The notes beneath the pieces were generated by a model. It saw nothing but the letters and a program-made list of their open reading frames with translations. It did no database searches and was not told the origin of the DNA. A DNA stretch of 64,000 nt from Promethearchaeati archaeon SRVP18_Atabeyarchaeia-1 (GTDB lineage: Archaea > Asgardarchaeota > Atabeyarchaeia > Atabeyarchaeales > Atabeyarchaeaceae): the NCBI GenBank assembly GCA_037308085.1, contig CP147779.1, forward strand, positions 544,001-608,000, written 5' to 3'. The translations under genes and the position numbers were made by a program. Positions 2,850 to 64,000 of the stretch are shown piece by piece; positions within the stretch are counted from its first letter, which is position 1; every line of letters begins with the position of its first letter.

Positions 2850-3200
2850 TTATTTCCCGTGCTGGTCGTATGCGTTTACCCGCTTCTTTACTTGCTGCAT
2901 TTCGTTGTAGATCTCAAAGTCAAAGTTGCTCATATCTTGGATGACTATTGGATCAATTTCTGGCATGTCACTATTCTCTTTTGCCGAAAAGTGTCCTATG
3001 ACGCGTAGCTTCTGACCTTCTTTGTATTTACAGATGGATCTCACCAAAGCCCTGCCGCCCCCATCCCCTATTATGAAGGGATTCGTTTCAATAACCTGTG
3101 CGTAAACTCTAATGATCCGATCTGAATTGGAAACCTGCCCGATTTTCTTCACGATAGAAGCGCGACTGGATTTAGACAAAAGAATGCGGGTCCCCCCCAT
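2850..3200 (-). CDS. Small OB-fold protein, RPA14/RPA3-like
   Basis: OB-fold pattern IRVYAQV..IIGDG.G..GQKLRVIG..IQDMSNFDFEIY; replication gene context. Confidence 0.6.
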   Translation of the reverse strand: MGGTRILLSKSSRASIVKKIGQVSNSDRIIRVYAQVIETNPFIIGDGGGRALVRSICKYKEGQKLRVIGHFSAKENSDMPEIDPIVIQDMSNFDFEIYNEMQQVKKRVNAYDQHGK

Positions 3201-20614: not shown

Positions 20615-21271
20615 ATGTCAACAAACATAATTCGCGGCGTCCATCCCACAAGGATGGAGCTGATCTTGCTTCAGCGTAGGAGACTCTTGGCCGAAAAAGG
20701 ACACAACCTGCTAAAGGAAAAGCGTGATGCCTTGATAATGGAATTCTTCAGCACCTTAGAAGATATCAGGAAACTGAGAGAAGACGTCAACTCTGCGCTC
20801 CAAATAGCGTTTAGAGAATTGCTGGAAGCAAAAATGGTTTTGGGACCGGCGAGAATGGCCGAGCTATCAATGGACATACCCAGCTCAGCTGGAGTAGATG
20901 TGGATACAAAGAACATAATGGGTGTGAGGGTTCCAATTCTGAGGCTTACGGAAGAGACCAAGAAGAACATGGTTCCCTACAATGTGCTCGATACGACGGC
21001 CAAAATGGACGAAGCCACCAAGAAATTCCAGCAAGCCGTGCAGATGATCGTCCGCTTGGCAGAGACGGAGATCGCTGTCCGAAAACTGGCAGAGGAAATC
21101 GACAAGACAAAGAGAAGGGTGAATGCCCTCAAGTACATCATTATCCCAAGAATAGGGAACACCATCGTATACATACAATTTCACTTGGAGGAAGTAGCAA
21201 GGGAGGATTTCTTCAGGCTAAAGAGAATAAAGGCGACACTGGAAAGAAGAGAATTGGAGCAAGCCAGATAG
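20615..21271 (+). CDS. atpD: A/V-type ATP synthase subunit D
   Basis: PTRMEL..GH.LLKEKRDAL, NIMGVRVP, KTKRRVNAL. Confidence 0.96.
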   Translation: MSTNIIRGVHPTRMELILLQRRRLLAEKGHNLLKEKRDALIMEFFSTLEDIRKLREDVNSALQIAFRELLEAKMVLGPARMAELSMDIPSSAGVDVDTKNIMGVRVPILRLTEETKKNMVPYNVLDTTAKMDEATKKFQQAVQMIVRLAETEIAVRKLAEEIDKTKRRVNALKYIIIPRIGNTIVYIQFHLEEVAREDFFRLKRIKATLERRELEQAR

Positions 21272-48562: not shown

Positions 48563-49276
48563 ATGGAACTCGGCTTTGTATCCATTGGCGTTTCTAACCC
48601 TGAAGCGCTCCGGGCACTGCCCTACGGATGGGTGGAAAAAATCGTGAATCTGCGGAGACCCGAAGAGCAACTTCCCACCGTCAAATCGGTAATACTCATG
48701 GCCATGCATGCCTGGGACAACAAGGCATTCAGCTTCGCCATTGACCCACCCAATTGGCTCGGCTACGGAATGCACCCACCCGAACAGCAATTCGACAGCT
48801 ACTACTTCTGCACCGAGATCATGAGGAACAAGGCGTGGCTAATGGTTGAGCATCTCAGAAAAAGCGGCTTCGAATCCACCATTGCTTCTGGATTTCCCCT
48901 CAAGACAGCCGCCGTCAAATGCGGCCTAGGCTGCCAAGGAAAGAACACTCTCCTAATTACCCCCCAGTTCGGACCAAGAGTAAGACTGATCTCAGTGCTA
49001 ACACCAGCACAGCTCGACGCAGACGAACCCTTCAAAGAAGACCTATGCGGAACCTGCGAGAAATGCCTCGCCGCTTGCCCCACAAAGGCGCTTGAACCCC
49101 ACAAGCTGAAAATCACCCGCTGCATGACCTACTCCGTAGAAAGCCCACACTCCTCGGACGTCCCCGACGATGTCAGGAAATTAGAGAAACAATTCGTCGT
49201 GAAGCCCACTCCGAACAGCTACATGGAATGCACAATATGCGCCGATGTCTGCCCCATTGGGAAGACGAAGAAATGA
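48563..49276 (+). CDS. QueG/epoxyqueuosine reductase-like 4Fe-4S protein
   Basis: AAVKCGLG..GKN.L..P.FG.RVRL, CGTCEKC..ACP, CTICADVCP. Confidence 0.8.
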   Translation: MELGFVSIGVSNPEALRALPYGWVEKIVNLRRPEEQLPTVKSVILMAMHAWDNKAFSFAIDPPNWLGYGMHPPEQQFDSYYFCTEIMRNKAWLMVEHLRKSGFESTIASGFPLKTAAVKCGLGCQGKNTLLITPQFGPRVRLISVLTPAQLDADEPFKEDLCGTCEKCLAACPTKALEPHKLKITRCMTYSVESPHSSDVPDDVRKLEKQFVVKPTPNSYMECTICADVCPIGKTKK

Positions 49277-49329
49277 GCCTGATGCTGCACTCCAGGCGGT
49301 TACGGGCCACAGAATAGAAGCAGCCTTCC

Positions 49330-49632
49330 TTATGTCTTAGGCGAGGGCTGCCTACCTTCACCACCAACTTCCCTTATTTCGCCTGCCTTGCTTACCTTGA
49401 ATTTATGCTTAGTCCTCGTAGTTGAGGAGGGCCCTTCATAGAGCTCGCATACGACGGTAAAATCCTTTCTCCCCCTCTTGACAGAGGCTACCGTAATCTC
49501 CTTCCAGTCCGCCACAATCCTATCAGCTGCCCTCTCCATTCCAGCACCCTTCTTCGTCCCAGACTCATTCCTTTCAAGATAGTTTCTTGCAAGCAGGGCA
49601 GCCGTGTCAGCATTGATCTCTTTTTCTTTCAT
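49330..49632 (-). CDS. Hypothetical protein
   Basis: 100-aa ORF with upstream TATA-like element. Confidence 0.5.
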   Translation of the reverse strand: MKEKEINADTAALLARNYLERNESGTKKGAGMERAADRIVADWKEITVASVKRGRKDFTVVCELYEGPSSTTRTKHKFKVSKAGEIREVGGEGRQPSPKT

Positions 49633-49759
49633 GCTAATGCGATCTGCATCCGAATCATATAAGAATTCCCGAAAAAATAGAGCTGCCGCCCCTAAGAGGC
49701 TTAATAAGGCAGCTACACAAGACTATCAGTCAACGAGGCGAGGGTGGGGATGAGGTCGC

Positions 49760-50318: not shown

Positions 50319-50346
50319 AGGATCACACCGCTTCAACTCACCCTCA
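50319..50346 (-). repeat. atpB 3'-end copy R4 (28-nt core only)
   Basis: TGAGGGTGAGTTGAAGCGGTGTGATCCT = EGELKRCDP. Confidence 0.8.
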
Positions 50347-50413
50347 CTCTAGTTAAACCTGGATGACTAGAAACCAATCTGCCAAAAGAAAACCAAAAAA
50401 AGAAGGGGAATTG
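50347..50413. repeat. Cassette end arm, copy 1 (includes U-rich terminator on - strand)
   Basis: About 67 nt nearly identical to 54711-54776, abutting the atpB core. Confidence 0.85.
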
Positions 50414-50441
50414 GAGTGTTCCAGCGAGCGCTGCCAATCGC

Positions 50442-51779
50442 CTACATCGTTTTCCTGTTGTGCCCGTCTATCATGAAGACGAACCCAACTATGCCGTGAA
50501 GGTTCGGTACAATGAATTTCAGGTTTATGTAATCCCCTTTGAATGTCTGCGTCCACGTGTCGTCGTTGAACATGAGTGGCCCTTTCACGTTCCCGTCGCG
50601 CGAGTGAACTGCCGATATCAGTGGGCATAGGTTCCATCTTCCGTACTTGTCAACGGCGTAGAGCTTGACCTGGTCGATCCACGAGTGGCTGTTGTTGTAC
50701 GCTGCGCCGATCTCAGCGAGCCGTATCGAGCAAACCTGGTGGTTTAGAGCTGGCATCGTGGTCAAGGTGTGGAACACGGTTATGTCGCTTTCAGGGTTGA
50801 CCAAGTTGTGTAGGTTCAGGACGCCCTCGTTAACGAACCCTGTGCCGTCCCAGACCAAGAGGTCCGGGCAGCCGCCACCACCGCCAGGCGGAGGGGGAGG
50901 GGGAGGCGGATAAAGATCCAACGTGACCGATGTCTGCAGAGTTTCCAGGGTCTCAACATGGGTTGGATTACCATCTACATGTTCGAACTGAACCGTTGCA
51001 ACCAGTGTTATCATGTGGGGGATGTTGCCCCTCGTGAGGTACCACTCGATGTCGGCATAAGCCGAAGCTTCGTCCACGCCATAGTTAGCCATCCACCATA
51101 TGTTCCTCTCGTAACTGGCGTCGATGAATCCTGGGTTAATCCATGTAAAGTATCCTCCACTGCTAGCGAAGGGGACATCGGTGTAAGAGCCACCATCTTG
51201 GTTTGCCTGGGACATGTCGTTGCACAGCGTGGTGATGCTATATACCCATCCAAGGATCCCAATGCCGGCAAGGGATGTTATCAGGTCCACCCCAACACCC
51301 AAGGCATACGAGTTGAGGGGGTCGATAGGGTGTGTCTCAGGAATGGGTTTCAAGCCCAAAGTGTTGGTATTATGAATGTATATTCCCATGTATTGCTGGT
51401 AAGATGGGTCCTCAACGACGTCGAGCTTAACCCACCTCACGAAGTAGAACTGATTTCCGGCAGGGGGCTCGGTATCATGAAACACGTTAAGGAGGGAAAC
51501 ATCTATGCTGACTCGAAGCGGCAAAAGGTCATAGGAGTAGCCGCCATCTCCTCTATAGTCGAAATCATAGACGTAGCATGCAATCGCAACCCCGCCCATA
51601 TTCCCTTGCTTCGAGTCCCCAATTGTTTGCCGGAATTGTGTGTCTGTAGTGGGCGTATAAGTAGAGAAGACACTGGGATGCCACGTTGCCGCCGCTGGTG
51701 CCACAACACTGAAAGTAGTGAGTAGCATTACTGACATGAGGGCTATCGTAGCGAGCTTTAATGATCTCTTGTTCTCCAT
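50442..51779 (-). CDS. Secreted protein with Pro/Gly linker and conserved GGCP C-terminal domain (cassette gene)
   Basis: Signal peptide; PPPPPPPGGGGGCP.L.V..G..VNEG..IDQVKLYA. Confidence 0.8.
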   Translation of the reverse strand: MENKRSLKLATIALMSVMLLTTFSVVAPAAATWHPSVFSTYTPTTDTQFRQTIGDSKQGNMGGVAIACYVYDFDYRGDGGYSYDLLPLRVSIDVSLLNVFHDTEPPAGNQFYFVRWVKLDVVEDPSYQQYMGIYIHNTNTLGLKPIPETHPIDPLNSYALGVGVDLITSLAGIGILGWVYSITTLCNDMSQANQDGGSYTDVPFASSGGYFTWINPGFIDASYERNIWWMANYGVDEASAYADIEWYLTRGNIPHMITLVATVQFEHVDGNPTHVETLETLQTSVTLDLYPPPPPPPPGGGGGCPDLLVWDGTGFVNEGVLNLHNLVNPESDITVFHTLTTMPALNHQVCSIRLAEIGAAYNNSHSWIDQVKLYAVDKYGRWNLCPLISAVHSRDGNVKGPLMFNDDTWTQTFKGDYINLKFIVPNLHGIVGFVFMIDGHNRKTM

Positions 51780-51799
51780 TTACTCGTCTCACTTCTCTC

Positions 51800-52050
51800 T
51801 CCATGTCTTGCGTTCTCTCTCAGCCCTTCAATTAGGGCTAGGCGGTGACCGCCTCCAAGACAAGCAGCCTTGGCTTACCTGCCGTGTTTCGCATCTGAAC
51901 AACGCAAGCATCGTTGCTCTGGGTTTCCCTCAACCGACTTAGCTGAGTTGTTCCCTGAGCGCCCCTCTTGAGCGGCGAATCGTCTCGATTCTGAGACTCT
52001 AGTTGCCTATCACGGCAGGATTTGTTTCCCCGTCCCTCGATCAACTGATA
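51800..52050 (-). ncRNA. Candidate structured 5' leader RNA, copy A
   Basis: Stems conserved with covariation against 54220-54405; lies between TATA (52072-52080) and ATG 51779. Confidence 0.55.
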
Positions 52051-52164
52051 GAAATTATTCCGATGGACCTGCTATTTATAGTTAACGTTTTCTGCTGGGG
52101 GAATCGATTATCGCATTAGAAATAAAACGGCCCCCCGCGCAGCGGAACGTGCCTCGAGCAGAAC
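52009..52164 (-). promoter_or_regulatory. Cassette promoter block, copy A
   Basis: TATAAATAG on - strand; about 155-nt block homologous to 54366-54523. Confidence 0.7.
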
Positions 52165-52263
52165 AAGAAAAACCAGCAAGCCGAGGAAATCGAGCCCTTT
52201 CAAGAACCAGTAAGGGAAACAAGCCAAGTAGCGAGCTTGTGAGAAGGGAGGAGAGAAAAGCGA

Positions 52264-52363
52264 TCAGGCGGTTGCCTGCGGCGTCATAGAAGCGTACTTG
52301 TAGCGGCTGGCCCTGCGGGCAGCCTCAATCGTCTTTGGATCGCAAGGCTTCAACTCATTCTCA
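52264..52363 (-). repeat. atpB 3'-end copy R3 (100 nt including stop)
   Basis: Encodes [32 protein letters not shown]; 81/100 identical to 61055-61154 by hand count, no indels. Confidence 0.93.
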
Positions 52364-52579
52364 GAAGCGCACGGTGGGAGCAACCCGGTGAGATTATGTC
52401 CTACCTGCGTGACAATGTTTCATGGGATTCCTCGTCGTTGCATCGGGCTTGCTGATCTTGGAGCTTATTACCAATCTTCGAGTATTAGGGTCACAGGAAG
52501 ATGTTTACTGTCAGCATCTGGTGCATAATAGAAAAAGTAAGGGAGTTGGAGTAGTCTCTCGATCCCTTTAGGTGTTGGC

Positions 52580-54190
52580 TCAGAATTTCGATATCACGTT
52601 ATATCCGATTATGACGAATGTGAAGCTTACTGGGTGTATCCATGGTGGTAGCGCTAGGAATCTGAGGTCTATGCTCTGGCTGGCGCCATTGTTCCACTTT
52701 GCCCCAAACTCAGTTGCCCTCAAATTGTCGTCCAAGAGCAGCTGCGGCAACACGTTACCGACTTGTGTTTCAACCGCTGAAACCAAGGGTAGTTGAATAG
52801 TCTTGCCGTTACTCAGGGTAGCGTAGAGCTTGACTTGGTTGATGTGGCTGATCGTCTCCCAATGCTCCGTTAGTCGGAACACGTATGTGTGGTCAACAAC
52901 TGCTGGCGTGTCTGTTAGGATGTGGCTTCTTACCAAGTCCGTTCCATTGTACCCAGAGTGTATGTCCAGCAGACCTTCGTTGACGTACTGAGAACCGCTG
53001 TAGACGTAGAGGTACGGGCAGCCGCCACCCCCGCTCTTTGACCATTGTACGTACACTGTGACCGCCGAAGTGTAAACACAGTCTCCCAACTCGTCATAGA
53101 CTCTAGCTTGAATTGTGTGGGCTACCGGACTAGTAGAAAGGGACACTTCCTTGTACCATAGATGATTGTCTCCGGCTTCGAGATCTAGCCAGGTGCCACC
53201 GTCGCAACTTACTTGGACACCACTAATGAATGGATAATTGCCCTGGTATGCATACACATAAACGCCAACAGCAGCAGTGGATCCGCTGGTGTAGAAAGTC
53301 AGACCAGATGTCGGGTATTTAAGTTGAATCTGAGGCAAATCAGTTATTTTGTTGTAGTTGTATCTGATTACGTCATTTGCATCTATTGTTACATCCGCGT
53401 AGACAGGAGCAGTTCCCACCTGCTTCCCAGTTCTCGGATCAGTGATAGGTTGCGTATCGACTACGTAACTGACCCTGATCGCGTAGTGGACATACACGAG
53501 ATAGGAGCCGTCACCTCCTGTGCAACCGAATTGGAACTTGAACATCAATGAACGCTGTGTCGAGTCTGCCCCAAGAATTGCACGATTGCGATCGTAGTCT
53601 CCATACACATCGTTACCGGTGCCATGTCCAGTCGTGCAGAATGTTCCGTCGAGCTGTACATTCGGTAGCAAGGCGCTAAGACCCGTGCCAACGTGGGCAA
53701 GCAGAAATTTGGCGAGAGCGTTAAAGATGTATGTTAGTAATGGTGCAGCATCACTGCTTGCCGGAGGAGAGGTTTTGACCGAATCCGCGTAAAGGGAGAG
53801 CCAGTTCCCAGGTACCTGGTTGGACTTTGGATCAACCACATAGGCATCAATGCACAGCCTTGTTACCTCGCCCACCCCCGCATCGCATATCAGTCCGCAG
53901 ACGATGTTCTGGTACTGTTGATTGCTAGTTGCGAACTGGCTGACAAGATACTCAATTGACATACCATAGGTGATATTGAATGGCTGTGCGTGGTAGTAAA
54001 CCCCAGACGGTGGGGTAACACGGATTGTCTTCAATTGTGCGCCCGAATGGTAGATCCCATTTGGATATTGCTCTTCTGTTGCGGTGCATTGCGGAAGAGC
54101 GTAAGCGAACATCGTAAGCAACAAGAGCGCTGATACGAGCAATACAGCTCTATACTTGCGAGTGCCAATTCTGCATGTCAGATTTCTCAC
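52580..54190 (-). CDS. Secreted protein with Ig-like domain and conserved GGCP C-terminal domain (cassette gene)
   Basis: Signal peptide; GGGGCPYLYVYSG..VNEG..INQVKLYA. Confidence 0.8.
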   Translation of the reverse strand: MRNLTCRIGTRKYRAVLLVSALLLLTMFAYALPQCTATEEQYPNGIYHSGAQLKTIRVTPPSGVYYHAQPFNITYGMSIEYLVSQFATSNQQYQNIVCGLICDAGVGEVTRLCIDAYVVDPKSNQVPGNWLSLYADSVKTSPPASSDAAPLLTYIFNALAKFLLAHVGTGLSALLPNVQLDGTFCTTGHGTGNDVYGDYDRNRAILGADSTQRSLMFKFQFGCTGGDGSYLVYVHYAIRVSYVVDTQPITDPRTGKQVGTAPVYADVTIDANDVIRYNYNKITDLPQIQLKYPTSGLTFYTSGSTAAVGVYVYAYQGNYPFISGVQVSCDGGTWLDLEAGDNHLWYKEVSLSTSPVAHTIQARVYDELGDCVYTSAVTVYVQWSKSGGGGCPYLYVYSGSQYVNEGLLDIHSGYNGTDLVRSHILTDTPAVVDHTYVFRLTEHWETISHINQVKLYATLSNGKTIQLPLVSAVETQVGNVLPQLLLDDNLRATEFGAKWNNGASQSIDLRFLALPPWIHPVSFTFVIIGYNVISKF

Positions 54191-54219
54191 TATCCTTAGA
54201 CTCTTTCTTTCTCTATATT

Positions 54220-54405
54220 TCCCTGTCTTGTTCTCTTTCTGCCCCTCATATGGGGCCAGGCGGTGACCGCCTCCAAGACAAGTAGCCCTGGCTTCTTAGC
54301 CACCGTGACCCACGCCAGACCGACGTGCCCACGAATCATCATAGACCTCAATCTCCAGCCGCGAATCACGGCAGACTGCTTTTCCTCTTCCCTCAATCAA
54401 CTGAT
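54220..54405 (-). ncRNA. Candidate structured 5' leader RNA, copy B
   Basis: Same stems as copy A with compensatory and G-U changes. Confidence 0.55.
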
Positions 54406-54523
54406 TGAAATTATTCCGATGGATCTGCTATTTATAGCTGTCGCGTTCTACTGGGGGAAACGATTATCGCATTAGAAATAAACCGTCCTCCAGCGCATCG
54501 GGACTAGGGTCTCGGGCAGAACA
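54366..54523 (-). promoter_or_regulatory. Cassette promoter block, copy B
   Basis: TATAAATAG at 54428-54436 (-); homologous to 52009-52164. Confidence 0.7.
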
Positions 54524-54610
54524 CGCCGGCAGACCCGTTCGCGTTATCCTATTCTCCGGCACGCCGTCTGCAGAAGAGACTTGCAGGGTAGACAAATAGG
54601 GAAAGAAGGG

Positions 54611-54710
54611 TCACGCCGTTGCCTGCGGCGCCGTACACGCATACTTGTAGCGGCTGACCTTGCGGGCAGCCTCAATCGTCTTAGGATCACAACGCTTCAA
54701 CCCACCCTCA
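54611..54710 (-). repeat. atpB 3'-end copy R2 (100 nt including stop)
   Basis: Encodes [32 protein letters not shown]; 80/100 identical to the native end by hand count. Confidence 0.93.
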
Positions 54711-54776
54711 CTCTGGTTAAACCTGTATGACGAGAAACCGATCTGCCAAAAGAAGATCAAAAAAAGAAGAGAATTG
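54711..54776. repeat. Cassette end arm, copy 2
   Basis: Homologous to 50347-50413. Confidence 0.85.
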
Positions 54777-54800
54777 AAGAATCTATAGGTAGCGATGCAA

Positions 54801-55808
54801 TCACCAAGTGAGACCGTACGGATTGGGGACCTCCCACGGACCGGAAGTGGTGGCTGTATTTCCAGCGGAGTCGGTAACCGTGTGCGTAAGGATATAAGTA
54901 CCCGGCGCACTGTAAGTGTGATCTACTACAAAGCCTGTTGCCGTGGAGCCATCACCAAAGTCCCAAGTGCTGCTAACGTAAGGCGTGGTGCCTCCACTTG
55001 AACTGTCAGCGAATTGTAAGTAGAGCCCATTCCAGTGAACTGCGTAGAAGTTAGCCTGTAGTTGAAGATCCCCGGCGCAAGCAGGATAGAAAGTAGGCTC
55101 TGTAAATGACGGAGTCTCTAATGGTATTAAGCCGGGTTGGACTCTCCAATGCGTAGTTATTGTGATGCCGGTTGCAAATGCCTGGTACTTATGTGTTCTA
55201 ATCAATGCCGTCAGAAGCACTTGGTTCGAATTTGATTGTGCAATGTCATTCATTGAGAATGTCCATTGAATATAGCCTCCGAAATTGTCGTCACGCTGTG
55301 TCGTAATCGTAAGAGACTGCTGAGTGTAAGAAGATGTGGCGGAAAAGGTAAGTACGTCCTGACTATTTAGAGATACACCAGTGCCATATGTAAACGACGT
55401 CGTGCCTGTGCTCGGGTCTAGATAGACAGCCATGGATGAATGAGCTAGCTCAAGCCTCGTTGTAGCTCCAGTTATGTATCCAGATTCGCCTCGACTCTTG
55501 CTTGGGTTCATTACTTCCAAGATATAAATCGCGTAATAGTCATATTGCGTACTGGTAGTCGGGATGTACTTGATCATCCATTCATAGTGCAATTGACCAA
55601 CATAGTAAGTCGTTGTATACCATGGAAATATCCAGAAATAGAATTGATGTGTAACATAGTAATCCCTAATGACGGGACCAGAGCTTTGGGCGGTTGGGTT
55701 CGTCCATAGACTAAAGACGTCGTCCGAAGCACGAGCTGGTGCTGCTTGCACTGCCAGAATACTCGTCATCATTACTGCGATCACGATGAATGCAAATGCT
55801 TTTCTCAC
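54801..55808 (-). CDS. Secreted protein with C-terminal PKD domain (cassette gene)
   Basis: GTG start after purine-rich RBS gives signal peptide MRKAFAFIVIAV..; WDFGDG..HTY..PGTY PKD motif. Confidence 0.82.
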   Translation of the reverse strand: MRKAFAFIVIAVMMTSILAVQAAPARASDDVFSLWTNPTAQSSGPVIRDYYVTHQFYFWIFPWYTTTYYVGQLHYEWMIKYIPTTSTQYDYYAIYILEVMNPSKSRGESGYITGATTRLELAHSSMAVYLDPSTGTTSFTYGTGVSLNSQDVLTFSATSSYTQQSLTITTQRDDNFGGYIQWTFSMNDIAQSNSNQVLLTALIRTHKYQAFATGITITTHWRVQPGLIPLETPSFTEPTFYPACAGDLQLQANFYAVHWNGLYLQFADSSSGGTTPYVSSTWDFGDGSTATGFVVDHTYSAPGTYILTHTVTDSAGNTATTSGPWEVPNPYGLTW

Positions 55809-55971
55809 TCTCTCTCCCTCCTCTCTTGGTCCGCGCCTCCACGCGGCCATTCCTGACTACTCAGCCGCGTATATTTATGCATTTCGATAGAAAACTGTAC
55901 GGAGGTTGAGTATCCCCAGCCACGAATATGTCAGAAGCGTCAAAGTCAGGTTCGTGAAAATAGATCTACTT

Positions 55972-56082
55972 CTATTCCTCTATGTACTCGTACGCATTCA
56001 CCTTGCGGGCAGCCTCAATCGTCTTAGGATCACAGCGCTTCAACTCACCCTCAGGAAACACTGAAAGAAGATCCCAAGCCAT
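55972..56082 (-). repeat. atpB 3'-end copy R1
   Basis: Encodes [36 protein letters not shown]; homology to atpB about 55984-56076. Confidence 0.92.
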
Positions 56083-56116
56083 TGCTGGAAATAGGCAATA
56101 ATCAGGTGACAATAAC

Positions 56117-57073
56117 CTACTGCCGGTTCTCCGATGCATAATCGTGTAGTAGGTTCTCTTGAGAGTCGGACTTAGTTGACTCTCGACTAGTATTCGGCGT
56201 ATTAAGAATAATAACTTCCTTGATCGCTCCTCTCCCGTCGCCCTTGCAGCTTATCATTCTCTTTGCGAGGATTTCCTCCACCTTATACCCGCTGTAAAGA
56301 TCTGTGATAAGGGGAGCAGCGCTGTTACTTAGCATTAGGAGGCATCCCCTTTTTGCCAGCTCGTCGAAGACCTTAAAGAGGTTTCTTTGGTCATCCTCCG
56401 AGAATGAGCCGCTAGTGTAGCTCGTGAAACTGGAAGTCTTGGAAAGAGGCTGGTATGGTGGATCGAAATAGACAAAGTCTCCTACGGTCGCGTACCTCAA
56501 AACTTCATCATACGGTCTGATATTGAGCTCGACTCCCTCAAGTAACCTGCTTGCTTTGAGTAGGTTACGCTCCTGCACGATCGATGGCTTCTCATAGCTA
56601 CCCATTGGCACGTTGAACTTACCTTGGGAGTTGACACGGTACAGGCCATTGAAACACGTCTTGTTGAGATAAATGAAGTCAGCTGCATTCACTAGGTCCG
56701 GAAAGTCTTCTTTGTTGATCGACGTTCTGAAGTTCTGCCTAGTCTCATAATAGTGGCCTCTTGGATCTTTGTGATGCTCTCGCGCGTGTCTCTTGAGTTC
56801 TGAAAGCAATTTATTGACAGCGTCCCGGACAGAAACGAATCCGTTGATCAAAACGGAGTTGACATCGGTTAGAACGAAATCCCTCTTCGACGCACCCTTC
56901 TTTTCAAGAATACTCTTCAGATAAAAGAAGACTGCCCCACTTCCAAGGAAAGGTTCGAAGTATCTCTCAAAGACCTTGGGAAAGTATTTTCTGTACTCTC
57001 CTAGAAGCTGGGTCTTGCCGCCTGCCCATTTCACAAAGGTGGGAACAGATATCCTCGCGGATTTCGGGTCCAT
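56117..57073 (-). CDS. Dam/DpnM-family adenine methyltransferase (GATC type)
   Basis: KWAGGK, EPFLGSGAV, FNGLYRVN..G.FNVP.G, YFDPPY. Confidence 0.92.
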   Translation of the reverse strand: MDPKSARISVPTFVKWAGGKTQLLGEYRKYFPKVFERYFEPFLGSGAVFFYLKSILEKKGASKRDFVLTDVNSVLINGFVSVRDAVNKLLSELKRHAREHHKDPRGHYYETRQNFRTSINKEDFPDLVNAADFIYLNKTCFNGLYRVNSQGKFNVPMGSYEKPSIVQERNLLKASRLLEGVELNIRPYDEVLRYATVGDFVYFDPPYQPLSKTSSFTSYTSGSFSEDDQRNLFKVFDELAKRGCLLMLSNSAAPLITDLYSGYKVEEILAKRMISCKGDGRGAIKEVIILNTPNTSRESTKSDSQENLLHDYASENRQ

Positions 57074-57130
57074 AGGCGCTCTCCTATGAGTAAGTAGAAA
57101 TACATATTATATCTATTCCATGCTCGTTCA

Positions 57131-58027
57131 ATGAGTTTGGAGGGAGAATTGTTGGTAGACTATCGCTTGCTAGGCTTCGAAAGCGAGAATCAATACCTTG
57201 GCTATTTCTTCGAAACACTTCTCAAGACTAACTGGACCTACGAGTACTTCGTCTACTGGGAAAAAGTCAGAGAAAACACTAGGAAGAATGTGAAGGAGAT
57301 ATCTCTCCTAAATTCTCTGACGAAAATCCCGCCCAAGAACAGGAAGGAGGAACTTCAGAGGATCTTCATGGAGTACCCGAAGACGATACCAGTCATCCCC
57401 TCAATCATAGCAATAAGGGAGAAAATCATTCCCATCCTGGAAATCGAGAAAACACCTCTCTACAAGACATTTGACTTTTCTGTCAGAAGACTCGAAGAAC
57501 AAGAGATCCAAGATCTCACCGATTTCTGCGAGAAAGCGGGGATTCTCCAACTTCTTGGAGAGATCAACGATCTCTACGCATACATGCTCGGAGTAGAAGT
57601 CGGACTGGACTCAAATGCAAGAAAGAATAGAAGCGGAGACATATTCCAGCAACTAGTAGGCATGCTCCTGAAGAGAAAACTAAAGCAGGCGGATCTGAAA
57701 ATAGTGACTGAAGATTCAAGCGTAGTAACCACCAGGAGCAAGAGAGCAGACTTTGTTCTCTACCATAGAGGCAGTGCAAAGATAGTGATTGAGTGCAATT
57801 TCTACAACACCACCGGCAGCAAACCAATAGAGACAGCAAATGCCTACGTAGACTTCCAGCGAAGGATACGTGAGAAAGGAGGAACCTCCTTCATCTGGAT
57901 AACCGACGGGCCTGCATGGGAAACAATGAAACAAACCGTCATGCAAAGCTTCAGAGAAATCGATTTTCCAATGAACTACACGATCGCAGGCGACAGACTA
58001 GACAGCCTAGTATCAGCTCTCCTATAG
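57131..58027 (+). CDS. DpnII-family type II restriction endonuclease
   Basis: GVEVGLDSNARKNRSG, IECNFY..GSK, FIWITDG..W. Confidence 0.9.
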   Translation: MSLEGELLVDYRLLGFESENQYLGYFFETLLKTNWTYEYFVYWEKVRENTRKNVKEISLLNSLTKIPPKNRKEELQRIFMEYPKTIPVIPSIIAIREKIIPILEIEKTPLYKTFDFSVRRLEEQEIQDLTDFCEKAGILQLLGEINDLYAYMLGVEVGLDSNARKNRSGDIFQQLVGMLLKRKLKQADLKIVTEDSSVVTTRSKRADFVLYHRGSAKIVIECNFYNTTGSKPIETANAYVDFQRRIREKGGTSFIWITDGPAWETMKQTVMQSFREIDFPMNYTIAGDRLDSLVSALL

Positions 58028-58185
58028 GACCCGCAGACGCGTACTCGCGACTCGGCACAACAAAGAAAACCAGTAAACCTAGAAAACCGGGCTCTTGTAC
58101 TGCTTGGCTCCCTGCACCGCATCTCCCATTTTAGGGCCACGGTGATTGAACTCACCCCCACCCAAGGAGATCCCTTCTCACTCCA

Positions 58186-59727
58186 ATGCGCCAACGAGGG
58201 ATAGCGCTGCCAGAAATGTACCAGAGAGACGGAAGTAACAATGGCTTAGTGGAGACTATAAGGCGACAACCGGAACCACCAACCAGCAGGAAAACAAGGC
58301 GAGGCCAGACTATGACCGGCGGACAATCGGCTGAAAGTAGCAATGGGTCTTCTCCGCTTGAACTCAACAAGAAACCCCGAGGCTTCGCCGGCGAAAACCT
58401 AGAACAGCTTATTGATCAGGGAGTACTGCCCAAGAAGGATGAAGCAAAGCTAGGCAACAACACGGTCTTGAGACTTGACGTGAATATGGGGCTCACCATA
58501 ACCCACGAGAACATAGACTACAGGATCTCAAGCGCGAACCACAGCAAGATAGGAGACCTAGACTTCTACAGATACGCCACCCAACGCGGGGAGGAATTCC
58601 TCCACATCCCAGCCCAAGGCAAGCTTGTCCCACCCACTGAAATGACCTGGTACGCGTACCCCCCTAACACGGAAGTATATCTGGACAAGAAGTACAAGCA
58701 CAAACTGCTTGAGACTGCAGTAAAGAAGGCAGGAGGGATAGTTGCCCTTCGGCATGAACTAAAGCGAAACGGAACAAGAATGAACGCCATGTACGTCTAC
58801 AAGCAGCTGAACGATCTGAGAAAAGGTATGACTGAAGATAAGTTGATTCCAATTCTCAACTACCTAGGAAGAAACCTAGATGAGGCAAGCAACCACATCT
58901 ACGCGATAGGACACATCCAAGCAGTGAAGGACCCTCAACTACCGTTCAACTTGAGTGGAAAGGATGGTGCAAGGCTACTATCTGCCAGGTACGGAGACGG
59001 AACACTCTGTGCATCAGTAGGGAGAGGACCAAGGTTTGACTACTCTAACAATGATACAGAGATGAGAGACAGAGTAATCGAATCATTAACCAATGTGTTC
59101 GGCGAACCAAACGTACTCAACAGAGAGCACAGTGATGGCCGAGTCTCGCAGGTGCGTACATCGTCAGACATCATCGGACATGCACTGCAAAGGGCGGGAG
59201 CAATAACCGGTGAAATCGTTAACCAGAATCCTCACGTACCCACATGGATCGAACAGGGATCCATAGAAAACAAGCGCGAGTGGATAGTCCAAGCCTTTGG
59301 TGACGAAGGATTTGTGTGGGCAAACAGGGGAAAGGTCTGCATAGGAAGATCTGTCGAGTTGACAAGCGTCTTGCTAGAACACATGTCTCGACACCTTGAT
59401 CAGATGGACTGGGGGAGCAGGTATATTGACGATGTCTTTGTCGATGACGTAAGAGCATGTGATGATCTTCCAGCCGACATCACTCAGGCGATAAGAGAGC
59501 ATCCCATCAACCTGCTAGTCGAAGAGAAGAAGATGCTTGAAGATTTCGGCATAGTCACAGAAATGTATCCCTCAGAGATTCATAGAGGAAAGTATGGAGA
59601 CTATTCAGCTCATTGGACCCTGCAAGCCAAAACAAGAGAAGACACGAGACGTTTCTATGAGGAGATAGGGTTTCCCCAAGAAAGAAAGCAGGAGGACCTA
59701 AGATCGGCTATTCGGTTTGAGAGGTGA
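58186..59727 (+). CDS. Free-standing LAGLIDADG homing-endonuclease-like protein (start possibly 58312)
   Basis: Two degenerate motifs LLSARYGDG and IVQAFGDEG; C-terminal FYEEIGF..RKQE.L. Confidence 0.65.
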   Translation: MRQRGIALPEMYQRDGSNNGLVETIRRQPEPPTSRKTRRGQTMTGGQSAESSNGSSPLELNKKPRGFAGENLEQLIDQGVLPKKDEAKLGNNTVLRLDVNMGLTITHENIDYRISSANHSKIGDLDFYRYATQRGEEFLHIPAQGKLVPPTEMTWYAYPPNTEVYLDKKYKHKLLETAVKKAGGIVALRHELKRNGTRMNAMYVYKQLNDLRKGMTEDKLIPILNYLGRNLDEASNHIYAIGHIQAVKDPQLPFNLSGKDGARLLSARYGDGTLCASVGRGPRFDYSNNDTEMRDRVIESLTNVFGEPNVLNREHSDGRVSQVRTSSDIIGHALQRAGAITGEIVNQNPHVPTWIEQGSIENKREWIVQAFGDEGFVWANRGKVCIGRSVELTSVLLEHMSRHLDQMDWGSRYIDDVFVDDVRACDDLPADITQAIREHPINLLVEEKKMLEDFGIVTEMYPSEIHRGKYGDYSAHWTLQAKTREDTRRFYEEIGFPQERKQEDLRSAIRFER

Positions 59728-59984
59728 AAAGAAACACTATCAAAGAAAATCAAACAGTACTAGTTCAGCAGGCGTATGAATAGTGGAAGGCTGAATACAT
59801 CAAGGAGGAGTAACTGCTGGGATGGCCGAAGGGAAAAGGACTGTCACCAGAAGAAAGGCAACATCCCAAAATAATGACTCCTGGATGGGTGACTCAAGTA
59901 CTTGAATACGTATTCAACCTAATGAAGAAAGTTATGCTTAGGCAATAATCCCAAAAGTTTAATATCGTTTGCCAAATACTTAGC

Positions 59985-60704
59985 TTGAGGGGATACGGTT
60001 TGGTTCGCCAAGTCAGGAGACCCATAGAAAGGCTCACCGATATGCTTCTTCTGCTCTTTCTGATCAACGATGTTAATGATAAAGATCATAACTGCGGAAT
60101 CACGAAGCTACAGAAGCTTGTTTTTCTGTCCCAACTAGAAATGAACAACCATAGACAGAAGGGGTTCAGCTACAAGTTCGTGAAAATAAATCTCGGACCA
60201 GTCAGTGGTCAGATTGAGAAAACTGACATTCCCAAGCTAGAGAAGGTTGGATACTTAGCCCAGGAGCAAGTTGGCAACTTCAACAAGTTTGTTGCCAGTG
60301 AGAGCGGTTCCAGATTTCTTAGCCATCTTTCAGGCATTTTCCATCGGAACGAACGATTCGTGCAGATTATATCCAGAATCAACGAGAAGTACTCTGGCAT
60401 GTCAGCCACTGATCTTGTTAACGAGGTTCACAGTATGCCGAACCCCTACAGGCGGAATCTGACCATAGATGAAACCCCCCAAGGAGAGGTCTTACTCTCA
60501 AAGATATCAGACAAAGCCACCCAAACAAGATTCGACTTCACCGGTAACGAACTCGCAACCCTTGAACTCTACTTTGACGCGGAGGCCAGAGAATCAGTTG
60601 AACGTGCAATGAGTTCAGCACTAAGTGAGCCTAGCGTTCCTTGGGAGGTCGTCCTTAGACATGCAGAAGAAGCGCTACGAGGTAAGGGTCAGCAAAGACT
60701 TTGA
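59985..60704 (+). CDS. Panacea/SocA-like (DUF4065) antitoxin
   Basis: GITKLQKLVFL..F...GPVS; overlaps downstream RelE gene. Confidence 0.7.
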   Translation: MRGYGLVRQVRRPIERLTDMLLLLFLINDVNDKDHNCGITKLQKLVFLSQLEMNNHRQKGFSYKFVKINLGPVSGQIEKTDIPKLEKVGYLAQEQVGNFNKFVASESGSRFLSHLSGIFHRNERFVQIISRINEKYSGMSATDLVNEVHSMPNPYRRNLTIDETPQGEVLLSKISDKATQTRFDFTGNELATLELYFDAEARESVERAMSSALSEPSVPWEVVLRHAEEALRGKGQQRL

Positions 60705-60996
60705 GCGCGAATTCATAAAACTCGTTAAGAGAGACCCTGAACTGAAGCGCAGACTTGAGTCTCGAATCGAGGAGCTTTCTATAGATCCTAGATTAGGAAC
60801 GACGCTCTACAAGTGGGATTATCAAGGCTGGAGGAAGGCTAGGGTTGGAGAGTACCGCATAATACTGGGAGTGTGCGAGGAATGCAGACAGATCCGAAAC
60901 CCGAATCTGCAACGATGCATCGACTGCGATCAAATGACTGACAACTTAGTGAAACTCATTGAAGTCGGTCACCGGAACGATGTCTATGATGACTAA
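60661..60996 (+). CDS. RelE/ParE-family toxin with CxxC-CxxC insertion
   Basis: YEVRVSKDFERE..RKARVGEYRII..IEVGHRNDVY. Confidence 0.85.
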   Translation: MQKKRYEVRVSKDFEREFIKLVKRDPELKRRLESRIEELSIDPRLGTTLYKWDYQGWRKARVGEYRIILGVCEECRQIRNPNLQRCIDCDQMTDNLVKLIEVGHRNDVYDD

Positions 60997-61054
60997 GAAA
61001 AATGCCTGCCCAATTCAAGTTTGAATCATGCCAAACGAGGTAGACGAAAGAAAG

Positions 61055-62536
61055 CTAGGCGGTTGCCCGCGGAGACATAGACGCGTACTTATAGCGACTG
61101 GCCTTCCGGGCAGACTCGATCGTCTTCGGATCACAGCGCTTCAACTCACCTTCAGGAAACGCCGACAACAAATCCCAACCAAGATCCAAAGTCTGCTCAA
61201 TGCTGCGATCCTCGTATTCCCCTTGACTAATAAACTTGCGCTCAAAGGTGTCAGCAAACTTCAGGTAGAGCTTGTCCCTATCAGTCAAAGCCTCCTCACC
61301 AATAACGGCAACCAAATCACGGAGATCCATACCCTCACTAAAAGCATAGTAAAGCTGATCCGACACTTCACGATGATCCTCACGCGTATGCCTAGTCCCA
61401 TCCTTCTCGACACCGATGCCCTCTTTCATTAGGCGACTCAGAGAAGGACGCGGATCCATCGGAGGGTAGATGCCCTTGTGGTGTAATGCCTCAGAAATAA
61501 TCAGTTGTCCCTCAGTGATATAACCGGTAAGGTCGGGAACGGGATTCGTAATGTCCCCGTGGGGCATCGTGAGGACGGGCATTTGTGTGATGGTGCCTTT
61601 TCTGCCTTGTATTCTTCCTGCTCTTTCGTAGATGGTGGCGAGGTCTGTGTAGAGGTATCCGGGGTATCCTCTTCTTCCTGGGACTTCTTCTCTTGCTGCG
61701 CTTATTTCTCGTAGGGCTTCTGCGTAGTTGGTCATGTCTGTTAGGATGACGAGTATGTGTAGGTTTTGTTGGTATGCGAGGTATTCTGCGGTGGTGAGTG
61801 CGCATCTGGGTGTTATGATGCGTTCGATGGCTGGGTCGTCTGCGAGGTTTAGGAAGAGGGTGCATCTTTCTAGTGCGCCGGTGCGTTCGAAGTCTTTGCG
61901 GAAGTATTGGGCTTCTTCTGCGGTGATGCCCATGGCTGCGAAGATTACTGCGAATTGTTCTTCTTTGCCGAGTACTTTGGCTTGTCTGGCTATTTGTGCT
62001 GCTATGCGGTTGTGTGGGAGTCCTGCTCCGCTGAAGAGTGGTAGTTTTTGTCCGCGGACGAGGCTGTTCATGCCGTCGATGGTGCTGATGCCGGTTTGTA
62101 TGAATTCTCTGGGGTAGGCTCTTGCGTCGGGGTTGATGGGGCTGCCGTTTATGTCCCACATGTCTTCGGGGATGATTGGTGGGCCGTTGTCGATGGGTTC
62201 GCCTGAGCCGTCGAGTATTCTTCCGAGGATGTCTGTTGTGACCGGGATCTTTAGCGTTTCTCCTGTGAATCTGGCTGTGGTGTTCTTCGTGTCGAGTCCT
62301 GTTGTTCCCTCGAAGACTTGGACGATGGCTTTTCCTCGCCCTACTTCGAGGACTGTGCCTTTTCTCTTTTCTCCGTCCGGTGTTTCGATGTTGACGAGTT
62401 CGTTGAAGGACACGCCTTCTACGTTTTGAAGTATTATTAGTGGTCCCTTGACTTCGGTTACTGTCCTGTAGGTTCTCTTGGTGTAGAGGTCGGACGTTGC
62501 GGTCCGTGGTTCTGATTCTTCTCTTGCTGTCTTCAT
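61055..62536 (-). CDS. atpB: A/V-type ATP synthase subunit B
   Basis: [59 protein letters not shown]. Confidence 0.97.
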
Positions 62537-62734: not shown

Positions 62735-64000
62735 CTAGAGGGCCGTCCTGTCAGTTATGTGGTTTGCGAGTTTGTCGGTTTCATCTTCGCTGAAGTGCAT
62801 GACCACTACTCCGGGTTGATTGATTTGGGCGACCAGGTCTCTGAGTTTCTTGGCGTCCCTTTTCCAAGGTGTGATTATAATCAGCTCTCCTGTTTGCTCG
62901 TATTTTAGTTCCTGCCTTATCCTTGCGAGCTTGGAGATTGCCGTAGTTAGGTCTATGCTGTTGTTCGTCCAGGTTGCGATCACGTGTTGGTTGTCGGTGG
63001 TTGCGAGAAGCTCCATGACTTGGTCTACCCATCTTGTGTTGACTCCCTTGCTGTGTAGATCTCTGTGGATTGCGTCTATGATGTATTCTTGTAGTATGTT
63101 CCTTGCCTCGTGGTCCGCGATTTGGTAGTATATTCTGGTAATGGTTACGGGAACCGTGTAGCTCGGCGCCTTGACTTCGCCGAGAAAACCATTTCTGATG
63201 AGAGGCTCAACCAGATTCCTCAATTCCTGTTGTGTTTGCACGTTGAGCCTCGATTGGAGTTTTGTCTCCTCGACTATCTCCTGCAGGTGCCTGAAGGCTC
63301 CTCTCACTTTGAGCCATGTCTCTTTGTCTTCTGATGCCCGCGGTGATCTGGCCATGGCTTGGTCCGGTGGTTTCCCTGCTTCTGGTTTCTGTAATCGGTT
63401 TGGGAAGACTAGGTTCATCTGGCTAGGCGGAGCTGAGGCTTCAATTCTCCCCGGGGGTGCCAGGGTCGGGAGTGTCTGGTGACTGACGGGGTAGGCTACT
63501 TGGGGGGTGATTGCGGCGCCTAACCTATCCTGTCTCTTTTCTTCTCTTGCCCCCTTCATACTCTCTATTGCTTTTATGGATGTTTTCAGGGCTTCCCTGT
63601 AGTCTCCTGCCTCGTAGGCTTCCTTTGCCATGTTTCTGAGCCTCGCGGTCTCTGGGGGAAGTGGTTCAACGGGTTTGTGTAGCCGGCTGGGGGTCTCCTC
63701 CATTCCGGTGCTTGGCTTCTGGATCTTCGCTTCCGTGTCGTATATTATTGGGTAGTTCATCATGTTGTTTATCATAATGTCTCTCTTCTCAACTTTCGGA
63801 AGATCCATCTCGAGAGTTTTGATCCTGATTGGCTTGGGGAACCTTGGCGTCGTGATTAGCGCCTCTCTCTTCGGCATTGTCTTCAGGTAGCTTGCCTGCT
63901 CTTCGTCCAAGTTGAGCCACTTTGCTGCTCGCTCATTGTCCACCGTGGTTCGAAGAAATATCTTCGTGGCGGCGTTTGCCACTATGTTTTGGCTTATGTT
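62735..64000 (-). CDS. C-terminal part of a HerA/VirB4-like ATPase (5'-partial)
   Basis: Frame open to the window end; ANAATKIFLR..L.L.EEQ..YL..M..REALI..PIRIK resembles HerA/VirB4 C-termini. Confidence 0.55.
   Translation of the reverse strand, partial: NISQNIVANAATKIFLRTTVDNERAAKWLNLDEEQASYLKTMPKREALITTPRFPKPIRIKTLEMDLPKVEKRDIMINNMMNYPIIYDTEAKIQKPSTGMEETPSRLHKPVEPLPPETARLRNMAKEAYEAGDYREALKTSIKAIESMKGAREEKRQDRLGAAITPQVAYPVSHQTLPTLAPPGRIEASAPPSQMNLVFPNRLQKPEAGKPPDQAMARSPRASEDKETWLKVRGAFRHLQEIVEETKLQSRLNVQTQQELRNLVEPLIRNGFLGEVKAPSYTVPVTITRIYYQIADHEARNILQEYIIDAIHRDLHSKGVNTRWVDQVMELLATTDNQHVIATWTNNSIDLTTAISKLARIRQELKYEQTGELIIITPWKRDAKKLRDLVAQINQPGVVVMHFSEDETDKLANHITDRTAL

Follow-up and report, generated by a model that had tools for sequence, protein, structure and literature searches.

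The 3' end of atpB, the gene for subunit B of the A-type ATP synthase, is repeated in same-orientation copies downstream of the gene in Promethearchaeati archaeon SRVP18_Atabeyarchaeia-1, and these copies bound an array of five gene modules of 1.3–2.9 kb, each with one to three genes. The array lies in a window of 64,000 nucleotides (nt), the whole stretch of DNA that was analysed (positions 544,001–608,000 of contig CP147779.1). Repeated insertion of small cassettes lacking an integrase, at an attachment site in the atpB tail and by an enzyme from elsewhere, is the explanation that we favour, at somewhat better than an even chance. A first-pass annotation of the window had described the repeats as the borders of a cassette-like array of former atpB ends. 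Both the repeats and their orientation were confirmed, the cassette-like structure is supported, and one more copy, the relic c58, was added. The host, an Atabeyarchaeum, is an Asgard archaeon, as had been proposed, and the window carries an actin gene.

Three Atabeyarchaeia genomes were compared: this genome (G000, a single closed contig of 2.81 Mb), a relative of the same genus (G001, fragmented and 94% complete) and a second relative (G002). An nhmmer profile built from the tail copies was searched against the closed 2.81-Mb genome, where it recovered the copies with E-values of 1e-27 to 3e-31 and found no others. A matrix of the 27-nt core of the tail, TGAGGGTGAGTTGAAGCGNTGYGATCC, which codes for part of the AtpB stretch (P)EGELKRCDP, scored five sites at 38–45 bits and all other of 5.6 million positions at 17.4 bits or less. 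The top remaining match, at 17.4 bits, is c58, again within the array and in the same orientation. The tail copies are not a product of chance, and they are confined to this locus rather than scattered through the genome. A match at 49293–49321 to the last codons of the tail was treated as chance – its score was at chance level, and it was absent from the profile search.

The atpB gene next to the array is full length and keeps all three of its Pfam domains, so the target gene is intact despite the insertions; it is 92% identical to that of G001 and 88% identical to that of G002. From the native tail to c50, the start-to-start distances are 5101, 1343, 2347 and 2017 nt. Two of the displaced copies, c54 and c52, align with the native end over 99 nt without indels, at 81–85% identity, and in both TGA replaces the native TAG at the same codon. 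The copy c56 has 24 nt of extra atpB sequence on the 5' side of the core and a different, shorter 3' end, while the similarity of c50 to atpB ends abruptly past GATCC(T).

Between the native tail and c54 there are 11 synonymous and 7 non-synonymous differences, a ratio of non-synonymous to synonymous rates (dN/dS) of 0.13 (Fisher p ~2e-4); for c52 there are 10 and 7, a dN/dS of 0.15 (Fisher p ~4e-4). Because frame and stop are kept and dN/dS is well away from 1, the tails evolved as working gene ends and not as duplicates decaying in place. They diverged while encoding the C-terminus of AtpB, under purifying selection, though each comparison covers only 32 codons. The earlier claim that each copy was once a working atpB end is supported by this test of c54 and c52.

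Table 1. Features of the atpB array in the window and of the second, RuBisCO-like array (aa, amino acids; ORF, open reading frame)
Feature	Position	Strand	Content and basis
atpB, anchor gene	61055–62536	-	A-type ATP synthase subunit B, 493 aa; Pfam ATP-synt_ab 1.3e-74, ATP-synt_VA_C, ATP-synt_ab_N
Native atpB tail	61055–61154	-	27-nt core at 61128–61154; core matrix score 41 bits
Module 1a	58167–61054		ParE/RelE-like toxin 60625–60996 (+); Panacea/SocA-like protein 59985–60704 (+); 513-aa LAGLIDADG-like protein 58186–59727 (+); Pfam, PHROGs, PADLOC, with motifs and fold for the 513-aa protein
c58, decayed former atpB tail	58079–58166	-	Core 58134–58160; ~60% identical to native tail
Module 1b, type II restriction-modification	56083–58078		DpnII-family endonuclease 57131–58027 (+); D12/Dam-type methylase 56117–57073 (-); Pfam 4.7e-74, 4.2e-57; PADLOC REase_II, MTase_II
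c56, displaced tail	55972–56082	-	Core 56027–56053; E 2.9e-31; 43.8 bits
Module 2	54711–55971	-	349-aa PKD-domain protein with signal-like N-terminus, 54801–55850; Pfam PKD, sequence inspection
c54, full-length displaced tail	54611–54710	-	Core 54684–54710; stop TGA in register; 42.1 bits
Module 3	52364–54610	-	536-aa signal-bearing protein 52580–54190; conserved ~420-nt leader with TATA-like box and hairpin block
c52, full-length displaced tail	52264–52363	-	Core 52337–52363; stop TGA in register; 38 bits
Module 4	50347–52263	-	445-aa signal-bearing protein 50442–51779; head paralogous to module 3
c50, core-only copy	50319–50346	-	27-nt core 50320–50346; 44.6 bits
Probable older cassette remnant	49211–49674	-	100-aa ORF 49330–49632; 74% identical to G001 contig C247 2346–2811
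RuBisCO-like tail copies	~2700.5, 2703.0, 2704.1, 2705.9, 2707.0, 2708.2 and 2712.3 kb of G000 (L125 = G000 2698001–2716000)		

In an alignment of 20 tail copies from the three genomes, the same 27-nt core is found in 19, while the limits of the atpB-like sequence around it vary. On the 5' side they vary between the core edge (0 nt) and a point about 60 nt upstream. On the 3' side they lie at 0 nt (c50), at about 20–45 nt in several G001 and G002 copies, or as far as the stop codon, with a maximum of 72 nt past the core. c54 and c50 break exactly at core edges, and they have in common a 70-nt arm of non-atpB sequence that terminates exactly at the core. No copy with only the 5' side was seen in the profile search or the alignment, and the lone 3'-only match is weak (E 0.006); either kind would have been detectable. 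A core kept in 19 of 20 copies with variable limits indicates recombination at a fixed site. The pattern resembles the hybrid attachment sites left by such recombination and would be harder to obtain from crossovers spread along the homology, which points to the former. We propose that the native core acts as the equivalent of an attachment site.

Homologous recombination alone would need no dedicated recombinase. By this mechanism, DNA of relatives with an atpB-like segment would enter, circularise and integrate through a single crossover within 50–160 nt of homology, and the tails would then act as mobile stretches of homology at which arrays could cross over unequally and exchange cassettes. 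The varying 5' limits agree with it. The constancy of the core does not, nor does the scarcity of one-sided copies, and in c50 the similarity is cut off sharply at either end of its 27 nt. Moreover, the homology in several copies is below 50 nt, a short length for an efficient crossover. We consider this mechanism rather unlikely, though it has further points in its favour that are given below.

Under the favoured explanation, the 3' end of atpB would be a recombination hot spot, with the 27-nt core as its active part. Small elements would carry one to three genes, a promoter of their own and an atpB-like segment over the core, in most cases reaching the stop codon, and would insert repeatedly through recombination at the core. 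Each insertion would hand atpB a new functional tail from the element and shift the prior tail distally as a relic, and serial insertion would produce the five recognisable modules. Cores within the array are probably usable as well as the atpB core. As the elements have no recombinase, the enzyme must act from elsewhere, either from the chromosome or from a helper element. We infer that the intermediate is circular, that the mechanism is site-specific and not homologous, and that the enzyme acts in trans.

Tail copies were found in all three Atabeyarchaeia genomes, downstream of atpB or, in G001, on separate contigs. G002 has six copies over 26 kb downstream of atpB, and G001 has about ten, six of them on one 12-kb contig and 1.1–2.5 kb apart. 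No partial tail matches were found in 28 other Asgard genomes, using the whole AtpB protein as the query. The elements of the relatives are 0.9–13 kb in size and encode an AbiE pair, a ZorD/DpdE-like helicase, a HerA-like ATPase, an HD protein, M20 peptidases, an amino-acid permease and zinc-ribbon membrane proteins. This cargo is unrelated to the cargo here, apart from a homologue of the LAGLIDADG-like 513-aa protein in the G002 atpB array. A comparison across strains had been suggested as a check on the cassette reading, and it gave tail repeats in all three genomes with completely different content between them. The displaced cores of G001, compared over 54 nt, are 83–85% identical to the cassette cores of this genome and 74–76% identical to the core of G001's own atpB, which suggests a shared pool of cassettes with its own type of site.

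The region of the window at 28–45 kb was considered as variable DNA, as it has no counterpart beside atpB in G002, but this was rejected. It is collinear with G001 and carries the housekeeping genes for actin, ArsA and UbiA (at 29–45 kb). Since this is ordinary chromosome, the variable part of the window is roughly 49–61 kb. Within it, the probable cassette remnant beyond c50 has a counterpart on contig C247 of G001 that directly follows a decayed atpB tail copy at 2952–3079.

AbiE toxin-antitoxin genes are found in the atpB arrays of both relatives, in G002 at L025:15683–17322 and on G001 contig C247 at L031:1246–2094. The first 40 residues of AbiEi are 82% identical between the two modules, and their orientation relative to the tails is opposite.

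A second array was found by comparing the genome with itself. Between 2700.4 and 2712.5 kb of G000 there are seven copies, all on the same strand, of a 70–150-nt unit that is the C-terminal end of a gene like that for the RuBisCO large subunit. The modules between them are 1.0–4.1 kb and encode three MNT/HepT toxin-antitoxin pairs, a secreted protein, a transporter and hydrolases. The same array is present in G002 (at least 8 copies, 2640.7–2663.5 kb) and in G001 (four copies, contig C94). A second array of the same build makes the atpB array one instance of a general habit of the lineage. No motif common to the atpB and RuBisCO-like arrays was found beyond T-tracts, and no recombinase gene lies near the RuBisCO-like array in G000 or G002. 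Every RuBisCO-like copy reaches the stop codon and the 5' limit alone varies; this, and the existence of two arrays with unrelated repeats, are points in favour of homologous recombination.

Additional relics of the RuBisCO-like tail were seen at G000 1709987, 1711216 and 1800960. The anchor gene of this array (L125:14298–15700, minus strand) reads in three frames of 308, 106 and 69 aa, and the 69-aa frame is separate in G002 too; possible readings are a pseudogene, a site of recoding and a hybrid junction. An ORF for an HNH endonuclease (115 aa, L125:16583–16930, plus strand) precedes the anchor gene by about 2 kb. Elsewhere in the genome there are direct-repeat pairs of 100–380 nt, 16–31 kb apart (G000 1936784/1958697, 868840/899438, 2527106/2548433, 1576460/1592210 and 619105/640565). 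Several of these overlap the 3' end of a long ORF and none encloses a PF00589 match; each pair may mark one integrated element of a similar style.

Recombinases were sought by a six-frame search of the whole genome with PF00589, PF16795 and PF00239. There are four tyrosine recombinase genes (PF00589), at 1.55, 1.66, 2.02 (Xer-like) and 2.59 Mb, and small serine recombinases at 1.26, 1.50 and 1.97 Mb only. The window spans 544–608 kb, and the earlier observation that it encodes no integrase holds. Of the tyrosine recombinases, only the Xer-like one (about 300 aa) was found intact in all three genomes; the other three of G000 are 441–468 aa long. The matches in G002 are all far from its arrays, and the few in G001 are on contigs without tail copies. 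By the core matrix, no core-like sequence is found near any recombinase gene or elsewhere in the genome outside the array.

Several results weigh against site-specific insertion. No tyrosine or serine recombinase was found in the window, near either array in G000 and G002 or on the tail-bearing contigs of G001, a result that homologous recombination would account for, and none could be linked to the atpB-tail site. Two unrelated repeats would need two specificities, or a mechanism blind to sequence. The present atpB cores of G001 and G002 deviate from the cassette consensus at several positions and would be poor partners for a recombinase that requires identity. Inspection of the core revealed no obvious dyad symmetry such as is typical of tyrosine recombinase sites. 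No free or circular element with an atpB tail was found in viral contigs, by exact-pattern and protein-based scans, or in metagenomes, where the scan returned only the native atpB end of a relative and two chance matches. Finally, c58 is the relic nearest to atpB and is far more decayed than c56, c54, c52 and c50, which have near-perfect cores; a simple history of insertion only at the proximal end fails for this reason.

There is evidence from G001 on what c58 is. Its atpB contig ends in a DpnII-family gene that is convergent with atpB; the final 35 codons of this gene are present, and the two stops are 47 nt apart. In this genome the stop of the DpnII gene is 51 nt from the stop of c58, and 2.9 kb separate c58 and atpB. 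As c58 lies in the array, on the right strand and with a spacing close to that in G001, it was read as a decayed former tail. What the first-pass annotation took for a single proximal module of 5.1 kb is thus most likely two modules, split by c58. Module 1a was not seen between the atpB stop and the end of the DpnII gene of G001, a contig that ends in that gene, and by this comparison module 1a is an extra proximal insertion in this genome.

The proposal that the newest module stands next to atpB therefore held in part: module 1a agrees with it, and the advanced decay of the relic nearest to atpB does not. Modules 2–4 were not found in the G001 assembly, which is 94% complete. Given that the distal cores are near-perfect and that these modules were not found in G001, either there were later events at inner sites too, or conversion or selection keeps the inner sites alike. 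Reading the order of the modules as their order of arrival is an unsafe rule.

The cargo consists of defence and surface genes, as had been described – the DpnII/Dam pair, the toxin and the Panacea protein in the proximal modules, and proteins with signal-like N-termini in the three distal ones. Methylation of GATC to m6A has been reported for this genome (preprint supplement of the mobile-element study), which fits an active Dam/DpnII cassette. The cassette-type core itself contains GATC, the target of this cassette; in the atpB of G001 and G002 the core at present has GACCC in its place. Genes are found on both strands, and the cassettes have TATA-like boxes of their own; in module 2 the box is about 27 nt ahead of the ATG, and a T-tract and an arm (arm X) are at 54711–54779. 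Homologues of the module 2 protein were matches to the PKD domain alone, without a second context.

A block of about 55–65 nt with two hairpins stands ahead of three genes for signal-bearing proteins, at 54230–54294 and 51812–51876 of the window and at G000 1901693–1901764. Alone, it is matched by contigs of other contexts in four metagenome runs, and it has no Rfam match. It may be a leader or a regulatory RNA motif. Rfam and tRNA scans of the window from 47 to 64 kb found nothing.

Parts are shared among the modules. Modules 3 and 4 have a common head of about 500 nt, made up of the tail, a leader of about 110 nt that is more than 90% identical and includes the TATA-like box, and the hairpin block, and their proteins have a C-terminal domain in common. 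The arm of module 4 (50347–50416) is 89% identical to arm X of module 2, and c56 and c54 are identical over 26 nt past the core and then differ. These heads, arms and partial identities indicate that cassettes exchange parts, and a mosaic of this kind is also expected from homologous recombination. The paralogous heads and the common domain of modules 3 and 4 could instead reflect duplication in place of a unit of tail and gene, followed by divergence. Duplication would not explain that the remaining modules and the arrays of the relatives carry unrelated genes, or that the arm of module 4 matches module 2 and not module 3.

An assembly error is the other simple source of tandem repeats. Assembled Logan contigs of public sequencing runs break at the c54 and c56 repeats, as such an error might lead one to expect, and contain no joints that skip or circularise a module. 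However, c58 and the native end are bridged by contigs from two runs, and c50 and c52 by a single long contig from a run that is perhaps the source sample; the genome, too, is a single closed contig. Two contigs encode an identical AtpB and have the same order up to c56, where both end at the repeat. Duplication in place and mis-assembly together are highly improbable. In one run the contig depth is about 0.5–6 over 50.3–56.0 kb against 13–15 in the flanks, and two runs include contigs starting at 56239; there may be strain variants with another array, though contig depth is not evidence and the breaks are not at cores.

Module 1a offers a different kind of explanation, in which its LAGLIDADG-like protein drives the array by homing. 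The protein would cut a naive atpB tail, repair would copy in the cassette together with a synonymous, cut-resistant tail, and misaligned repair would give tandem tails. The 513-aa protein has two invariant LAGLIDADG-type motifs, and its top fold matches are PI-PfuI, PI-SceI and I-DmoI, though these matches are weak (E 8e-3) and the model poor (predicted local distance difference test, pLDDT, 54); it is a candidate DNA-cutting enzyme. The homologue in the G002 atpB array, the HNH endonuclease gene near the RuBisCO-like anchor and the mainly synonymous differences between tails are in keeping with homing. Against it, the gene is in only one of the five modules, repair of a double-strand break normally replaces rather than duplicates, and of the five paralogues elsewhere in the genome, three were checked and had no flanking repeats. 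On this evidence homing is very unlikely to have built the array. The family of the 513-aa protein has six members of about 430–800 aa, which carry two LAGLIDADG-type motifs and match no Pfam family; the paralogues are at 891.6, 981.2, 1027.2, 1067.0 and 1405.1 kb of G000.

Integrons were the comparison made in the first-pass annotation, and as an analogy it stands. Small cassettes of one or a few genes without a recombinase are separated by a repeated site at a fixed insertion point, their content is adaptive and includes toxin-antitoxin genes as in chromosomal integrons, and it varies from relative to relative (five modules here, six sites in 12 kb in G001). Integrons do occur in Archaea, with Asgard genomes among those reported (PMC9668308). 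As a literal description the comparison fails, and the capture of attC-bounded cassettes by IntI, already contradicted here, is left with next to no probability. PF00589 searches found no IntI-type gene adjoining the insertion site in this genome, G001 or G002; the ORF that precedes atpB encodes a HerA/DUF87 ATPase. Folded inverted repeats of the attC type were not found at the four sites examined, two of them on both strands – their single-strand DNA folds have z-scores of -0.44 to +0.19 relative to shuffled sequences – and the sites are in-frame copies of the end of a coding gene. The cassettes also differ from those of integrons in having their own TATA-like boxes and genes in both orientations.

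The closest parallels are elements that accumulate at the 3' ends of genes. The integrative and conjugative elements (ICEs) ICESt1 and ICESt3 and the related cis-mobilizable elements (CIMEs) at fda of Streptococcus thermophilus show tandem accretion at the end of a protein gene, with partners that lack an integrase. The atpB array resembles them in having the 3' end of a housekeeping gene as the target, an intact target gene, direct repeats of the gene end and elements arranged head to tail, and it resembles CIMEs in elements that would rely on an integrase in trans. Unlike those systems, no element of the arrays in the three genomes encodes an integrase, the modules are much smaller at 1–3 kb, the coding tail that is replaced is long (about 100 nt) and under purifying selection, and the host is an Asgard archaeon with atpB as the target. 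Neither an integrase in the array nor a resident helper with the same attachment (att) site was found by the whole-genome recombinase and core searches.

Integrative mobile elements exploiting Xer (IMEX) use the host Xer recombinases at dif, as in the CTX/TLC arrays of Vibrio. They are similar in that integrase-less elements stand in tandem at one site, and all three genomes have an Xer-like recombinase. They differ in that the site here is inside a coding gene and that two different sites are used; by inspection, no dif-like dyad symmetry was seen in the core. As for the hallmarks of casposons, no inverted repeats were found at the module ends, and the Pfam scans of the module proteins gave no match to the Cas1 family; no genome-wide search for Cas1 was made.

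Archaeal mobile elements are known to enter the 3'-distal parts of protein genes, and re-use of the same site gives tandem arrays (PMC6563490). The elements of that survey of Thaumarchaeota likewise target the 3' ends of protein genes, supply a new stop codon and re-use sites, but they are proviruses, casposons, ICEs and cryptic elements that measure at least several kb, encode an integrase or casposase and have att sites mostly shorter than 25 bp. Here there are at least five tiny cassettes without an enzyme and with 27–130 nt of gene mimicry. Relative to known accretion at gene 3' ends, the arrays are unusual in the size of the cassettes, in being wholly free of recombinase genes in all three genomes and in having two conserved anchors. 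The published paper on the mobile elements of these genomes describes 18 integrated elements; atpB, ATP synthase, RuBisCO and cassettes do not come up in the main text. The element table of the preprint gives type, host and size without coordinates, and no entry was matched to the atpB array. A 1.3-kb element in it was considered as module 2 and rejected, as it is of the IS605 type.

The neighbourhood of atpB has some features of its own. Between atpA and atpB there is a 1253-aa ORF for the HerA/DUF87 (FtsK-like) ATPase, on the minus strand from 62735 to 64000 of the window and onward (L128:735–4496). It is kept in G002 (51% identity), and the local AT skew is very strong, at -0.43 to -0.52. 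In this genome atpA contains an intein with a LAGLIDADG endonuclease (about 1140–1150 aa; G000 610621–614079; L129:2497–5916), while the atpA of G002 is intein-free, at 598 aa. The atpD gene, at 20615–21271 of the window on the plus strand, is 40 kb from atpB and convergent with it; in G002 the two are 67 kb apart. With atpD distant and convergent, the operon piece that contains atpB ends with this gene in the lineage.

Of all known organisms, Asgard archaea are the most closely related to eukaryotes, and gene uptake in them is poorly understood. The question raised by the atpB array is which enzyme recognises a 27-nt coding stretch. It is possible, though doubtful, that the Atabeyarchaeia have independently evolved an integron-like form of gene capture, in which the 3' ends of conserved genes serve as insertion points, each cassette carries a mimic of the gene end, a recombinase that may be of a new kind acts in trans, and cassettes are moved between arrays and between species. 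If insertion at the gene ends is correct, two conserved loci per genome would capture small, enzyme-less cassettes for defence, toxin-antitoxin and surface functions, giving compact variation at the level of strains, and the array would offer a natural case of an essential gene that is remade by every insertion.

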